Assembly: GCA_963665115.1 (NCBI GenBank)
Contig: OY762007.1
Location: 4,960,001 to 5,024,000, forward strand
Length of the DNA: 64,000 nt
Direction: 5' to 3'
DNA from: an uncultured Rivularia sp.
GTDB taxonomy: Bacteria > Cyanobacteriota > Cyanobacteriia > Cyanobacteriales > Nostocaceae
Made by a program: the position numbers and the translations under genes. The notes under the pieces are model-generated. The model was not told the origin of the DNA and did no database searches. It was given only the letters and a program-made list of their open reading frames with translations. This document shows, piece after piece, positions 7,115 through 12,578 of the stretch. Position 1 is the first letter of the stretch. Each line of letters starts with the position of its first letter.

Positions 7115-8110
7115 ATGAAAGCAGTGTTAATCACAGCACCCGGAAACCCAGAAGTTTTACAAGTACGGGAAATTGCAAACCCGCTTCCTCCCCAAAATAC
7201 AGAGCTTTTGGTACGTTTAAAAGCTGCTGGAGTTAACCCCATCGATACCAAACTTCGCAAACGCGGTACCTTTTACCCAGATAAAATGCCTGCAATTTTA
7301 GGATGCGATGGTGCAGGAATTGTGGAAGCAATAGGAAATTCGGTAAAACGTTTTCGCGTAGGAGATGAAGTATATTTTTGCAACGGTGGAATAGGCGATC
7401 GCCAAGGTAATTACGCAGAGTTCACAACTGTTGAAGAGCGCTTCGTAGCTGCGAAACCGAAATCAGTCTCCTTTATAGAAGCTGCTGCTGCACCTTTAGT
7501 ATTAATTACCGCATGGGAAGCATTATACGAACGGGGACGTTTAGAACCCGGTGAAAAAGTATTAATTCATGCTGGTGCGGGTGGTGTTGGACACGTTGCA
7601 ATTCAACTAGCTAAACTAAAGGATGCTGATGTTTGTACTACGGTAAGTTCTCAGGAAAAAGTGGATTTTGTCAAGAACCTGGGGGCTGATTATGCGATTA
7701 ATTACCAGCAAAATGATTTTGTCAAAGCAGCTTTGGATTGGACAAATGGTGAAGGTGTAGATTTAGCATTCGATACAGTTGGTGGAGAGACATTTGAGAA
7801 AACATTTCCAGCGATACGAATTTACGGCGATATTGTCACCATTTTACAACCAAGCGACGCAACCAATTGGAAGGTTGCCAGACAAAGGAATTTAAGAATC
7901 GGTTTGGAATTGATGTTAACACCGATGTTGCAGGGAATGGTGGAAGCACAAGCCCATCATGGAGAGATTTTATCAGAATGTGCGAAGTGGATGGATCAAG
8001 GAAAGTTGAAAGTTTGTGTGAATAGGACTTTTGGCTTGGAAGAAGTTGCGAAAGCGCATGAATTGTTGGAAGCAGGTTCGATGATTGGGAAGGTTGTGGT
8101 TGTTAATTAG
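7115..8110 (+). CDS. MDR-family NADPH:quinone oxidoreductase / Zn-type alcohol dehydrogenase-like
   Basis: AAGVNPID.K.R, ILGCDGAG.V, VLIHAGAGGVGHVAIQLAK, C-terminal GKVV. Confidence 0.9.
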   Translation: MKAVLITAPGNPEVLQVREIANPLPPQNTELLVRLKAAGVNPIDTKLRKRGTFYPDKMPAILGCDGAGIVEAIGNSVKRFRVGDEVYFCNGGIGDRQGNYAEFTTVEERFVAAKPKSVSFIEAAAAPLVLITAWEALYERGRLEPGEKVLIHAGAGGVGHVAIQLAKLKDADVCTTVSSQEKVDFVKNLGADYAINYQQNDFVKAALDWTNGEGVDLAFDTVGGETFEKTFPAIRIYGDIVTILQPSDATNWKVARQRNLRIGLELMLTPMLQGMVEAQAHHGEILSECAKWMDQGKLKVCVNRTFGLEEVAKAHELLEAGSMIGKVVVVN

Positions 8111-8147
8111 TTCGTAGTAAGGACTTTAGTCCCTCATCTCCAGATAC

Positions 8148-8390
8148 CTGGCGATTGAATATGCTGCACCTATTGGTGAACGCGGCTACACAGGCAAAGT
8201 CCACCTTCGTGGACTAAATATTTAATGTTTATTGTAGGGTGTGTTATGGCGACGAAATGGTTGTAGGGAAACAGATATGTTAGTTAATGCCGTAACGCAC
8301 CGTCTTGTTTTAGCGAAGTAATCTTTTAATTTTACTAGGGCGTTAAAGTCCTGGCTACACAGGCAAATTTCATCTGTGTGGGCTGAAAAT
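8148..8390. repeat. Cluster of dispersed palindromic repeats at the left edge of the retron island
   Basis: GGCTACACAGGCAAAGTCCACCTTCGTGGACTAAA (8184) recurs degenerate at 8354 and ~60040 and inverted at ~60675-60707; GTAGGGTGTGTTA...TAACGCACC (8234-8301) recurs near 54442-54508 and 60244-60306. Confidence 0.75.
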
Positions 8391-8417
8391 TCTATCGATT
8401 TAATTCGCTACGAGCGA

Positions 8418-8461
8418 ACTAAATTCACAATATTCCAAATTTATGGTATATTGAATTTAGT
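8418..8461 (+). promoter_or_regulatory. Extended -10 promoter overlapped by a palindromic operator (retron promoter)
   Basis: TG-n-TATATT at 8444-8452; perfect 10-bp inverted repeat ACTAAATTCA (8418-8427) / TGAATTTAGT (8452-8461). Confidence 0.55.
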
Positions 8462-8462
8462 C

Positions 8463-9076
8463 GGATAAAAGGAGATGTTTGCCATTTACTGGATTGCTTC
8501 GGCATTCCGTGGAAGATAGTTATATATCTTCTATCGTGTTTCTAATTTATCTATTTGAGAAACGTGTAATTCACGCGGGTTGCCACACTAGAGACTACTT
8601 AAAGACTCCAGGAAAGAAACCTCAATGAAATTATCATTGCACGATTCCTAGAAATGTTTAGTAAACATAGAACTGTAATTATTTCCCCTATGAGTACGTT
8701 GTTCTAGGTTACTAACTAAACTAAATTAGGAAAATGAATATGAATAGAAAACACTCAAGCGCAGCTTTAGCAAATTAGCTGCGTAGGTATGGGGAGGGTT
8801 AAAACTGCTGTTCTCCTGGTTTGTTTGAGGCAACACTTATTTGTGGAAACTTGAATAAGTGCAAACAAAACATATGCATGAGGTTTTTATGCAAGAAAAA
8901 TCCGATAAACAGCAGCAGCAATCGAAAAAGCGTAAATCAAAACGGTGGCTGAAATGGCTCCGTCAACCTCAAACGCTCCGTCTACTGTTACAACTTGGTA
9001 CAATCATTTTTAATATCTTAAAATGGTTGGTCGAACGTTCACATGGTTGATATAGATTGCTTACCTCCTTTTATCT
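8463..9076 (+). ncRNA. Putative retron msr-msd / hybrid RNA enclosing a small ORF
   Basis: Terminal arms GATAAAAGGAG (8464-8474) and CTCCTTTTATC (9065-9075) are exact reverse complements. Internal hairpins at 8491-8508 (cUUCGg loop), 8510-8533, 8538-8563, 8623-8639, 8647-8708, 8760-8783 and 8820-8869. Lies directly upstream of the HTH and retron RT genes. Confidence 0.75.
8889..9050 (+). CDS. Small basic/amphipathic protein (53 aa), candidate retron effector
   Basis: GAGG RBS at 8880-8883, ATG at 8889; MQEKSDKQQQQSKKRKSKRWLKWLRQPQTLRLLLQLGTIIFNILKWLVERSHG has a basic patch followed by a hydrophobic helix. Confidence 0.65.
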   Translation: MQEKSDKQQQQSKKRKSKRWLKWLRQPQTLRLLLQLGTIIFNILKWLVERSHG

Positions 9077-9116
9077 ATAAAACTCCTTAATATCCTCTGT
9101 TCAAAGGAGGTTAACA

Positions 9117-9425
9117 ATGTTAAATGAGGCTCTAAGATTAATTAGAGTATTCTACGATTTACCACAGAAGCAACTTGCAGAGAAATTAGGAATATCTAAA
9201 TCATATCTTTCAGAAATTGAGTCGGGAAAAAAGACTCCTACAATTGATTTGCTAAATCGTTACGCAGATTTTTTCGATATCCCAGCATCCTCAATTATGT
9301 TCTTTTCAGAAAGCTTAGAAAAGGATGCAAAAGTAGAAAAACTGAGAAGTTTTGTATCTTCTAAAATTATAGCTATTCTTAACTTTATTGCTGAAAGGTC
9401 TGGTAATTCTTATGCCGAAAAATAA
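9117..9425 (+). CDS. XRE/Cro-C1 helix-turn-helix protein (retron accessory)
   Basis: Strong AAAGGAGG RBS; LRLIR...LPQKQLAEKLGISKSYLSEIESGKKTPT HTH; overlaps the RT start by 14 nt. Confidence 0.9.
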   Translation: MLNEALRLIRVFYDLPQKQLAEKLGISKSYLSEIESGKKTPTIDLLNRYADFFDIPASSIMFFSESLEKDAKVEKLRSFVSSKIIAILNFIAERSGNSYAEK

Positions 9426-10311
9426 GCATACAATATATGAATTAGATCAATCACCTTTTTACTGTTTGAAGTCTAAAGCGAAACTCGAAAAGCTTTTACT
9501 TATAACTAAAAGCAAACTTCAAATGCTTACTAAATCAGAAGATTTGTATCGCGAGAGTAATATTTATGGAAAAAATGGTAAACCTCGTCCCGTACAAAAA
9601 CCAAGACCTGATTTAAAAAGAGTTCAAAAGCGAATTGAAGAGCTTTTAAAACGAATAAAGCTTCCAAGTTATATATATGCTCCTGCGAGGGGGCTTTCCC
9701 ATATTAATAATGCTCAAGCTCATATAAATGCTGTAGTCCTAAGAACGCTTGATATTGAAAAATACTTTCCTTCTACACCATCAAGGCACGTTTATTCATT
9801 CTTCCACAAACGGATGAAATGTTCTCCAGATGTTGCTGGAATTTTAAATAAGATATTAACATTCAAAGGTTATTTACCAACTGGCAGTCCATCAAGTCCA
9901 ATTATTTCCTATTTTTCACATATTGATATGTGGGAATCAATATACGAAATTGTGAATCAAGCTAATTGTAATTTAGCTGTTTACATGGACGATGTAACTA
10001 TTTCAGGTGATGTTGTTCCTGACAAATTGATTTGGCAAATAAAGCAGCAGTTTTATAGCTGTGGATTGCGTAGTAATAAACAGAAAGAAAAATTTTACGT
10101 TGGCAAAAAGTCATCTGAAGTAACTGGAATCATTATCAAAGAAGGTAAGTTAAAGATTCCTAATCGTATACATTGGAAAATGTATAAGATTCGTCTAACT
10201 CTTCATTCAGAAACTCAGCCAAACAAACGTAAGAAGCTGATGCAACAATTGGAAAGTTTAAAGGCATATGAGCGACAAATTCTAATATCAAACTCTGCTT
10301 CATTAAATTGA
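9412..10311 (+). CDS. Retron-type reverse transcriptase (299 aa)
   Basis: NAQAH (retron region X NAxxH), LDIEKYFPS, LPTGSPSSP, catalytic YMDD, VTG (region Y); no intron maturase or endonuclease extension. Confidence 0.92.
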   Translation: MPKNKHTIYELDQSPFYCLKSKAKLEKLLLITKSKLQMLTKSEDLYRESNIYGKNGKPRPVQKPRPDLKRVQKRIEELLKRIKLPSYIYAPARGLSHINNAQAHINAVVLRTLDIEKYFPSTPSRHVYSFFHKRMKCSPDVAGILNKILTFKGYLPTGSPSSPIISYFSHIDMWESIYEIVNQANCNLAVYMDDVTISGDVVPDKLIWQIKQQFYSCGLRSNKQKEKFYVGKKSSEVTGIIIKEGKLKIPNRIHWKMYKIRLTLHSETQPNKRKKLMQQLESLKAYERQILISNSASLN

Positions 10312-10364
10312 ATGTTCAACAGCGGTATTATCTGCATTAAATTAACAAAATAAAAGGATAAAAA

Positions 10365-10592
10365 ATGAACACTTCTATCATTGACGAAGTAATTGAACAA
10401 CTCGGAACCATGCCGCAGCACTTACAATCGCAAGTACTAGATTTTGCTCGTAAACTTGTACAAAACGAAGTTAAAGGTACTCCTGGTTCGCAATTACTGC
10501 GTTTTGCAGGTTCTATTCCTGCTAATGACGTTAAATTAATGAGGGAAGCGATTGAACAAGACTGCGAACAGGTAGATGTCAATAAGTGGTAG
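10365..10592 (+). CDS. Putative VapB-type antitoxin
   Basis: 75 aa, P...Q.QVLDFA..L...GTPG..LLRFAG.I...D...M..AIE pattern; overlaps a PIN toxin gene. Confidence 0.7.
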   Translation: MNTSIIDEVIEQLGTMPQHLQSQVLDFARKLVQNEVKGTPGSQLLRFAGSIPANDVKLMREAIEQDCEQVDVNKW

Positions 10593-10971
10593 GTTCTTGC
10601 TAGATACAAACATTATCATTGCTCTCTTTGCAGATGAAGAAGCAGTTAAAAATAAGCTTGCTCAAGCCAACGAAGTTTTTATTCCAAGCAATGCTATTGG
10701 TGAATTGTGTTACGGTGCTAGAAAATCGGGGCGAGTTCAGGCAAATCTAGCAAGAGTTGATGAATTGATTGCGAACAGTGCAGTGCTTGAATGTGATGCT
10801 GAAACTGCTCGGCAATACGGTGAAGTCAAAAACCAGTTAAGGTTAAAAGGTCGTCCGTTACCTGAGAATGACATTTGGATTGCAGCCGTTGCCTTACAGC
10901 ATAATTTAGTTTTGGTAACACGCGATGCTCATTTTCAGCAAGTTGAGAATTTGCAATCTGTCAATTGGTAA
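10576..10971 (+). CDS. vapC: VapC-family PIN domain toxin
   Basis: LLDTNIII, GEL..GA, P.NDIWIAA.ALQH.L.LVTRD.HF. Confidence 0.9.
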   Translation: MSISGRFLLDTNIIIALFADEEAVKNKLAQANEVFIPSNAIGELCYGARKSGRVQANLARVDELIANSAVLECDAETARQYGEVKNQLRLKGRPLPENDIWIAAVALQHNLVLVTRDAHFQQVENLQSVNW

Positions 10972-11189
10972 ATATTACCGTATAAATAGAATGCAATTAT
11001 TTGATTGTTTTTCGCTGCTTCACAGGTTTTCTCTCACGAAAATAACTAATCAAATACTCAGTCTTATTGATAAGACTTCTGCTATTAGCCCAGGGTTTGC
11101 AACCCTGGGTGGTTTAGGTTTAGAAGGAACAATATCAAACAAAAACTCCCAATTGACTTTATAATAAGTTTCAAGCGGAGAAATAAACC

Positions 11190-11868: not shown

Positions 11869-12213
11869 TTATGGTTCTAACAATTTCTCCATCAGCGTAT
11901 AAATATCGTTTTTATCACCTTCTTTCCGTAAACCTATTCCTACTACTAAAACTATTATTTTCTCAAGTTCAACTTTGTAAATAATTCTGTAGCGTTGACC
12001 TACTGCTCTAAGACTGCGATAACCTAAAAGATAATCGACTAAAGCTTTACCTTGAAGAAGTGGATCTGTTTTTAACTTATTTATGCGTTGGCTCAAGCCT
12101 TTTCGATGACGCTTATCTTTAATACCGCTTAACATTTCTAATGCTAGCGGTGTCAGTTGAATTTCATACTCGGTATTAGCGGGCTGATTTGTATCTGAGT
12201 CCAACTTATTCAA
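11869..12213 (-). CDS. RelE/ParE-family toxin
   Basis: YEIQLTPLA...I..LK.DP...GK.L...L.GYRSLR....RYRIIYKV....I.V.V..IG.R. Confidence 0.85.
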   Translation of the reverse strand: MNKLDSDTNQPANTEYEIQLTPLALEMLSGIKDKRHRKGLSQRINKLKTDPLLQGKALVDYLLGYRSLRAVGQRYRIIYKVELEKIIVLVVGIGLRKEGDKNDIYTLMEKLLEP

Positions 12214-12245
12214 ACTTCCCTAAAATTCAAGCACCTTACAATTAG

Positions 12246-12269
12246 AAATGTACATTAAAGTGTACATTT
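12246..12269. promoter_or_regulatory. TGTACA palindromic operator-like site
   Basis: AAATGTACA-N6-TGTACATTT; related GTAC-core array at 12589-12615 upstream of the antitoxin. Confidence 0.45.
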
Positions 12270-12311
12270 GTAGAAGCAGTATGGGAAAGTCCAAAAATAT
12301 ACTTACTAGAT

Positions 12312-12578
12312 TTATTCAAGTCCAAGTTTAGCTTTTGCTTCCTCCCAAGTTATAGTTTCTCCTCTTTGAGCCTGCTGAATACTTTCTTGCAACTGTTTGC
12401 TGAATTTTTTATCGGAAAGAATAGCTAAAGTTTCCATCATAGATTCAAATTTTTCAAAGCTAAGTGCTGCCATTACTGGCTTACCATGCTTAGTAATAAT
12501 TACTGCATCGTCTTTCAACTCATCGGGCAAATTTAATAACTGCTGTCTAGCTTCTGTAATAGTTAGATACTTAGGCAT
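12312..12578 (-). CDS. Phd/YefM-family antitoxin
   Basis: LTITEAR..L..L......VIITKHGKPV....S.E.FES..ETL.IL. Confidence 0.9.
   Translation of the reverse strand: MPKYLTITEARQQLLNLPDELKDDAVIITKHGKPVMAALSFEKFESMMETLAILSDKKFSKQLQESIQQAQRGETITWEEAKAKLGLE

Follow-up and report, generated by a model that had tools for sequence, protein, structure and literature searches.

The canonical retron msr-msd RNA, exemplified by Eco1, has terminal a1/a2 arms and a branching guanosine. Type VI retrons are described, in the text of PMC7736814, by the gene order small protein–HTH–RT, with an HTH protein of 91–110 aa encoded upstream of, or overlapping, the RT. In the preprint text on Retron-Vpa2, a hybrid RNA of ~470 nt contains both the template and the toxin ORF, and has three arms, with the 3′ end annealing to the first arm in the manner of a1/a2 (10.1101/2025.10.22.683967). 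Arm 1 is the source of the msDNA (63+23 nt), which builds up during infection and turns on translation of the toxin. This translation requires the 5′ stem-loop of the msDNA, with 7-nt direct repeats present in two loops proposed as the point of contact, and deletion of the 5′ part of the RNA is toxic. Both the HTH protein and the RT bind the RNA, and they keep reverse transcription at a low level, while the RNA elements responsible for silencing, and the way in which msDNA lifts the silence, are left open by the authors (10.1101/2025.10.22.683967).

Retron-Sen3, of the Type VI cl2075 lineage, is described in its preprint text as having an inverted repeat, IR1, at the 3′ end of the long template stem that pairs with IR2 past the stop codon (10.64898/2026.04.27.721009). 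Its toxin, of 79 aa with an N-terminal extension, is controlled after translation, ssDNA is constitutive, and the ncRNA fold and the extended IR1/IR2 fold are modelled as alternatives (10.64898/2026.04.27.721009). The concept of a hybrid template and toxin RNA for Type VI retrons is therefore already published, so that the main idea of the sequence-only reading of the locus described below, namely that one RNA serves as both RT template and toxin mRNA, is right but known.

The locus lies in a 64,000-nt stretch of an uncultured Rivularia sp. genome (GCA_963665115.1, contig OY762007.1, positions 4,960,001 to 5,024,000), here called the window. All coordinates are window positions, and the features of the retron from its promoter to the RT gene lie on the forward (+) strand, an upstream palindrome being assigned no strand. 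The gene order is a small ORF (8889–9050, 53 aa), an HTH gene (9117–9425) and an RT gene (9412–10311) whose start overlaps the HTH stop. The RT belongs to the Type VI group, with an intact catalytic motif (YMDD) and a VTG motif, and matches the PADLOC model RT_VI at 1.1e-90 (next model 2.6e-44). The HTH protein is Cro/C1-type (Pfam HTH_3), of 102 aa with Arg at position 7, within the Type VI size range, and matches HTH_VI at 2e-36. Type VI retrons have a gene for a small helical protein upstream of the HTH gene, a place taken here by the 53-aa ORF. On this sequence evidence the locus is a cyanobacterial Type VI retron, a fresh member of an already known type of anti-phage system.

The small protein has a basic N-terminal half and a hydrophobic C-terminal half, and is a predicted toxin by analogy with Vpa2 and Sen3; it gave no Pfam match over the cut-off, no PADLOC match and no family model. 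The ORF is open in 33 of 35 aligned loci. In the other two (L016 and L037) it is broken, with a stop at codon 10 and an insertion of ~100 nt, and the RNA helices and RT frame are kept. The closest relative (L113/L124, genome G010) sits at the same site and encodes a small protein 96% identical to that of the window; its RT match covers residues 3–77 only, near the end of the fetched stretch.

The nearest loci are cyanobacterial, for example in Rivularia, Crinalium and Scytonema, and an RT match was found in 29 of 389 genomes of the family. The cassette occupies the same chromosomal site, after a zinc dehydrogenase gene, in three of 23 genus members, and six others have a macro-domain gene within 1.4 kb of the dehydrogenase, which marks it as an accessory insertion. 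In a quick RT tree, built without any Vpa2 sequence, the window RT falls in a 34-row clade (SH-aLRT 100) with short-protein loci, apart from the clade with 75–83-aa small proteins. Among viral contigs, no relative was found by RT or by RNA motif.

Several observations concern the surroundings of the cassette and its wider family. A VapBC-type toxin-antitoxin pair (10365–10971, DUF2281-like and PIN domain) directly follows the RT in the same accessory insertion, and further on lies what we take to be a RelE/Phd-like pair (11869–12578). At the left edge of the insertion is a dispersed repeat element (8110–8330) with up to 24 blastn matches per position in the genome, and in run X2 a single contig of low depth runs directly from 8217 to 11170 and lacks the cassette. 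In three alphaproteobacterial plasmids (L061, L065 and L066) a TIR-domain gene lies directly downstream of the Type VI RT. The loci L083–L091 contain RT_VI-scoring RTs in frames of 515–645 aa, most without a nearby HTH match, that form their own clade and are probably another retron type.

The RNA was studied by comparison of homologous loci. Of 54 fetched, those with an HTH and an RT at least 50% identical were kept, giving 39 after removal of exact duplicates and 33 at 95% identity; these, with two later additions, make up alignment A1 of 35 loci, from which L055 and L056 were left out as near duplicates and L059 for having no HTH. The predicted hybrid RNA spans 8459–9077, and may reach ~9120. 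It comprises a leader, msr-like hairpins, the template, the small-protein mRNA and a 3′ arm, with helices conserved across the 35 loci. That a Type VI hybrid RNA is encoded here is highly probable.

Arm 1 of the predicted fold contains two msr-like hairpins, a variable stem-loop of 65–264 nt and a 24-nt hairpin. The first msr-like hairpin (8491–8508) is paired in 95.5% of cells, with changes on both sides at five of its seven pairs; it has a UUCG loop here, as the sequence-only reading listed (cUUCGg), and it is the hairpin and not the loop that is conserved. The second (8511–8532) is paired in 94.2% of cells. Between the two, G8509 is invariant in 35 of 35 loci and is a candidate for a catalytic or RT-binding role. 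The long variable stem-loop (8536–8754), with its base helix 92% paired, is the predicted main template (msd) by analogy with Vpa2. It is followed by the 24-nt hairpin (8760–8783), the predicted RT-DNA 5′ hairpin, which is kept in the DNA fold and has the first direct repeat in its loop (8769–8773). This template-loop repeat has one mismatch here, is exact in both nearest relatives and has decayed in several Nostocaceae loci.

Directly after arm 1 comes IR1 (8784–8801), a purine tract that is the conserved partner of the post-stop pyrimidine arm IR2 (9062–9077) in an a1/a2-like helix. Arm 2 (8805–8915), a predicted riboregulator, is closed by the helix 8805–8812/8908–8915. Its inner stems (8820–8827/8862–8869 and 8834–8844/8851–8861) flank a bulge (8828–8833) with the second direct repeat, and it encloses the RBS (8880–8883) and the start codon (8889). 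Arm 3 (8917–9061), closed by 8917–8923/9055–9061, holds the remainder of the small-protein ORF. Beyond IR2, a small hairpin (9094–9110) would hide the HTH RBS; it is paired in 88% of cells, with no both-side change. IR2 in this genome is also complementary to the HTH RBS (16 nt, 88%), a pair that is not locus-specific and was rejected (4176/5000). Pairing of 8805–8808 with the ORF end was likewise rejected, 8908–8915 being the better-kept partner.

Conservation of these helices was assessed in several ways. The arm-3 closing helix is 97% canonical, with both-side changes at five of seven pairs (tree-aware test 0/300), the arm-2 closing helix is 98% canonical (joint changes 1/300), and IR1/IR2 shows 9 joint changes on the tree against 4.5 expected (5/300). 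A systematic screen for helices with a minimum length of 5 bp and present in 75% or more of the loci returned 105, with the arm-3 and arm-2 closing helices and a leader helix, termed helix a below, among the top seven; near the top were 8917–8923/9055–9061, 8805–8812/8908–8915, 8788–8794/9067–9073 and 8460–8465/8901–8906. An 11-helix model that includes IR1/IR2, the hairpins and a further leader helix (helix c, below), and excludes the two arm-closing helices and helix a, was paired in 91.8% of 2324 cells over the 35 loci, with 32 pairs showing both-side changes; 0 of 500 shuffles did as well, and slid controls reached 40–49%. A blind all-against-all tree-aware scan returned one of 98346 pairs at E<0.05, 8838/8857, which indicates that such a scan has low power. 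Rfam gave five matches up to E=1, none at the gathering score.

Taken as a set, IR1/IR2 and the arm-2 and arm-3 closing helices show a predicted three-arm junction matching the Vpa2 description: three arms leave a central node, the 3′ end anneals back to arm 1, direct repeats lie in the template-hairpin loop and in arm 2, and arm 2 encloses the RBS and start codon. Further likenesses to Vpa2 are the gene order, a small protein of 53 aa against 55 aa, Arg7 of the HTH protein, and a predicted msDNA 5′ hairpin of 24 nt against 23 nt. The locus differs in its cyanobacterial host, in an RNA of ~620–660 nt against ~470 nt owing to the longer variable stem-loop, in a direct repeat that has 5 nt, one of them mismatched, where Vpa2 has 7 nt, and in YMDD against YADD; the leader pairings and upstream palindrome described below do not feature in the text of the Vpa2 preprint. 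With Sen3 it shares the IR1/IR2 helix, a transcript reaching the HTH RBS and a 5′ segment that pairs near the small-protein start; the basal stem SL1 of Sen3 hides the RBS, according to the preprint text, and is a partial analogue of the leader pairing here. The 75–79-aa small protein with an N-terminal extension of ~25 residues that is found in the Sen3 (cl2075) group is lacking in the window, where the protein has 53 aa and the RT lies in a separate clade. Like canonical msr-msd RNAs, the predicted RNA has two msr-like hairpins, then a long template stem-loop and a closing long-range helix, but this closing helix joins an internal arm to an arm beyond the toxin ORF.

The sequence-only reading had proposed a single RNA of ~610 nt, much longer than canonical msr-msd RNAs. 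The comparison supports a retron whose structured RNA probably encloses the effector ORF in one transcript of ~620–660 nt, but not the specific pairing proposed to close that RNA. The extra length comes from the variable stem-loop (219 nt here), and 658 nt lies within the family range of 506–694. None of five runs was recorded as RNA. Contigs on the locus came from four runs whose kind is unrecorded and which were retrieved by means of this very sequence. Those of X1 and X2 span the 5.5 kb in full; the only X4 contig on this stretch has 654 nt (8470–9123), and a contig of X5 has its first position at 8460. The ends agree with those of the predicted RNA, but are not counted as evidence, given the unrecorded kind of the runs and the way in which they were found.

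The pairing at issue joins 8464–8474 to 9065–9075, which lies within IR2. As that reading stated, the two are exact reverse complements, indeed the sole exact 11-bp inverted repeat in 8459–9120, and the 3′ arm lies 15 nt past the stop of the small ORF. The folding check also came out in its favour: the pair has a folding energy of −17.2 kcal/mol, belongs to the minimum-energy fold (z of −4.5 relative to 20 shuffles) and, with pseudoknots ignored, folds 2.3 kcal/mol better in this genome than the forced junction. Of 1000 dinucleotide shuffles, 73 contained an exact 11-bp repeat somewhere and 6 had one whose arms were separated by 500 nt or more; a repeat so widely spaced occurred in one of 192 overlapping 662-nt window tiles.

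Conserved terminal a1/a2 arms, as in a canonical msr-msd RNA, are absent from the homologues. The longest exact complement between leader and post-stop arm is 11 bp in one of 35 loci and 4–6 bp in the other 34; the pair shows no covariation (5 joint changes on the tree against 4.1 expected, 130/300), and is paired in 62% of 348 cells, equal to the shuffled mean of 62%, with no register from −5 to +3 beating shuffles. Leader and post-stop arm beat shuffles in one of 33 loci. Binding of the leader to that arm has a median of −6.1 kcal/mol, against −10.9 for the purine tract 8783–8803, which binds more strongly in 31 of 33 loci. When own pairs were set against cross-locus pairs, the purine tract gave 7 of 5000 permutations and the leader 2046 of 5000; a pairing of the leader with 9081–9099 gave 48/5000 and is kept as a weak possibility, locus permutations, here and in the leader tests below, treating related loci as independent and so overstating significance.

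Both nearest relatives (L001 and L113) have a C at the position of 9071, which breaks the 11-bp helix, leaving 10 of 11 pairs, and falls at the mismatch position of the conserved IR1/IR2 helix; the perfect match thus rests on one change in this genome. In the closest relative, moreover, the U-U of IR1/IR2 becomes a proper pair. Three Shine-Dalgarno-like purine tracts fit the same pyrimidine arm (leader −17.2, IR1 −18.1 and HTH RBS −13.2), so a chance match arises easily. Judged by comparison across loci, the flagged pair arose by coincidence in this genome and overlies a real conserved structure.

Other elements of the sequence-only reading fared unevenly. Among its listed stems, 8491–8508, 8511–8532, 8760–8783 and 8820–8869 are kept (85–94% of cells paired), but 8538–8563 is not (43%). 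Its long-range complements fail in homologues, the columns of 8579/8829 being filled in 6% of loci and 8608/8814 being paired in 58% of cells against 60% in shuffles. These two complements, the stem 8538–8563 and the flagged arms in nine registers were therefore rejected as conserved pairings. With respect to the proposed branch points, a conserved one at G8477 is refuted, as G occurs there in three of 35 loci; G8474 is G in 32 of 35, but sits in predicted leader helix b. No conserved G follows IR2 across the loci.

Comparison of the leader with arm 2 suggests a different role for the start of the RNA. Three leader segments are complementary to parts of arm 2: a′ (8460–8467) to small-protein codons 4–6 (8899–8906), b′ (8471–8475, which holds G8474) to 8812–8816, and c′ (8479–8483), an anti-repeat, to the bulge repeat 8829–8833 and equally to the template-loop repeat 8769–8773. 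The flagged 5′ arm overlaps a′ and b′. Helix a crosses the three-arm junction and would therefore be a pseudoknot. It is 98% canonical over six pairs, three with both-side changes, and its joint changes on the tree number 6 against 1.8 expected (3/300); one of them, in four loci, is an Asp-to-Asn change in the small protein, and in the closest relative its G-U becomes A-U. Helix b, with weaker support, is 91% canonical and not significant in the tree test (70/300). Helix c pairs in 98% of cells with the bulge repeat and in 92% with the template-loop repeat (tree test 12/300).

These complementarities were followed into more distant loci, in a set of 23 comprising the window and 22 others with RTs 29–46% identical where printed; a rule fixed the start in 13 of these, the remaining 10 starts were chosen by eye, and L099 was left out. 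For helix a, own pairs scored 16.6 against 10.2 for cross pairs (0/20000), the own pair beat those with the four GC-nearest loci in 22 of 23, and in 16 of 23 no more than 1 nt separates the end of the helix from the arm-2 helix; helices b and c gave 0/20000 and 12/20000, respectively. In seven unseen loci with a rule-set start, helix a gave 11/20000, whereas helices b (1265/20000) and c (790/20000) were not significant. Of 31 unseen loci taken up, 14 were dropped for lacking an HTH or RT match and 8 for lacking the palindrome. With a rule fixed before nine unseen loci were viewed, the anti-repeat gave 23/20000, and helix a, tested in a wide window, gave a weak result (three measures: 359, 2654 and 1797 of 10000). 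Start-anchored versions for helix a, chosen afterwards, gave 6–114/20000, with a Fisher p of 0.008 against dinucleotide shuffles and p<=0.05 in three of nine loci. An unanchored scan was weak, the best leader position falling in the expected window in two of nine unseen and four of 11 seen loci. Across distant loci, the anti-repeat and both repeats change letters together.

The comparison thus shows a complementarity of the predicted RNA start to small-protein codons 4–6, and helix a very probably forms; that helices b and c also form is likely, with rather less confidence. The text of the Vpa2 preprint makes no mention of antisense, nor of leader pairing to codons 4–6, 8812–8816 or the bulge (10.1101/2025.10.22.683967), and the texts of the Vpa2 and Sen3 preprints make none of a pseudoknot, operator or palindrome; their figures or supplements may show some of these pairs.

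Upstream of the RNA lies a predicted sigma-70 promoter (8424–8452), with a −35 element at 8424–8429, a TG at 8444–8445 and a −10 element at 8447–8452, and a predicted start at ~8459. The claim that the flagged 5′ arm begins just past a predicted start agrees with this promoter-like site (10 of 12 letters, with TG); sites of that quality numbered 15 against 14.9 expected, and the −10 letters T, A and T are invariant in the 35 loci. Further upstream is the palindrome TTCGC-N5-GCGAA (8404–8418). With up to two mismatches allowed, it is present in 34 of the 35 cyanobacterial loci, 21 of which have it exactly, and in 113 of 5000 90-nt windows drawn at random from the genome; in L046 the fetched stretch starts inside it, and it is whole in another view of that locus. 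Of the distant short-protein loci, 9 of the 11 unseen and 10 of the 12 seen ones contain it; none of six long-protein loci does. The 8.7-Mb genome has three exact copies.

The palindrome shows no compensatory change and its spacer is fixed, and its distances to the leader start cluster at 22, 32–35, 41–43 and 53 nt, in steps of about one helical turn. Lack of compensation and helical-turn spacing together fit a DNA operator for the HTH protein, and the palindrome is a candidate operator of the retron's own HTH. Sen3, by contrast, has an essential 5′ stem-loop with a variable loop of 3–14 nt and compensatory changes.

Together, these features suggest a hybrid RNA that is both the RT template and a silenced toxin message, locked by its leader and opened by RT-DNA, a reading to which we give a probability of roughly 0.6. 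The leader would fold back as pseudoknots onto arm 2 at codons 4–6, 8812–8816 and the bulge repeat 8829–8833, and this three-point clamp would close a loop holding the RBS and start codon, keeping the toxin silent. The HTH protein and RT would bind the hybrid RNA and, as in Vpa2, keep reverse transcription low. On phage infection the RT would copy ~250 nt, from ~8785 back to ~8535 by analogy with Vpa2, the base after IR2 facing the template start. In its loop, the first RT-DNA hairpin would reproduce the letters of the third leader segment, and it could displace that segment from the bulge; once the lock is loosened, the basic, hydrophobic-tailed small protein would be translated and the infected cell arrested. 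Displacement by RT-DNA as the switch itself is a tentative proposal, at somewhat less than even odds. The leader lock agrees with two findings in the Vpa2 text, the toxicity that follows loss of the 5′ part and the requirement for the msDNA 5′ stem-loop.

A control of the kind reported for Sen3 would assign the RNA a different part. The hybrid RNA would be mainly a scaffold, the small protein constantly made and restrained by the HTH protein, and its release would be triggered when host nuclease activity is lost, not when the RNA opens. The preprint text reports this for Retron-Sen3, which has the same gene order and IR1/IR2 helix, and the cyanobacterial RBS lies outside the arm-2 lower stem and may be less hidden. 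The window protein, however, lacks the N-terminal extension, its RT stands apart from the 75–83-aa-protein clade, and the start-codon helices are kept through amino-acid changes (Asp to Asn in four loci, and Gln/Arg). We consider such control unlikely here.

Less likely again is a two-state switch, with the leader helices in one fold and the three-arm junction in an alternative one, and with the RT, the HTH protein or transcription picking the state. Covariation is blind to whether pairs are simultaneous or alternative, 8812–8816 can pair with either the leader or the RBS, and the Sen3 preprint text models its ncRNA and extended IR1/IR2 folds as alternatives. Helix a, on the other hand, uses bases left free by the junction fold, and its ending within 1 nt of the arm-2 helix in most of the diverse loci is as expected for stacking in one fold. 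That 8464–8474/9065–9075 acts as a1/a2 with G8474 or G8477 as branch point, at least in this lineage, is highly improbable, since the stability of the perfect 11-bp helix, and its near-persistence in the two nearest relatives, are outweighed by its reduction to 4–6 bp elsewhere, the lack of covariation and the rarity of G8477, and since the RT would copy the toxin ORF first, whereas the msDNA of Vpa2 is mapped to arm 1 in the preprint text.

The locus alone is an ordinary new member of its type. The leader lock, as the centre of the preferred reading, gives the silencing question posed by Vpa2 named base pairs, and would explain both the toxicity of deleting the 5′ part and the need for the msDNA 5′ hairpin; minimum-energy folding and nested covariance models cannot reveal such leader pairs. 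A wider conjecture, which we hold to be possible though doubtful, extends to the whole short-toxin Type VI clade, in cyanobacteria, alpha-, beta- and gammaproteobacteria and prophages. Throughout this clade, the first 25 nt would be a three-point antisense lock, pseudoknotted onto the region of the toxin start, with RT-DNA mimicking the third lock segment and acting by strand displacement; priming would occur at the internal arm, where no branching G is conserved, and might start from the 3′ end of the RNA itself. The HTH protein, in addition, would bind a palindromic operator at its own promoter. The palindrome offers a first testable DNA target for a Type VI HTH protein, and a natural DNA-triggered RNA switch, if the reading is true, would be a usable part for synthetic biology.
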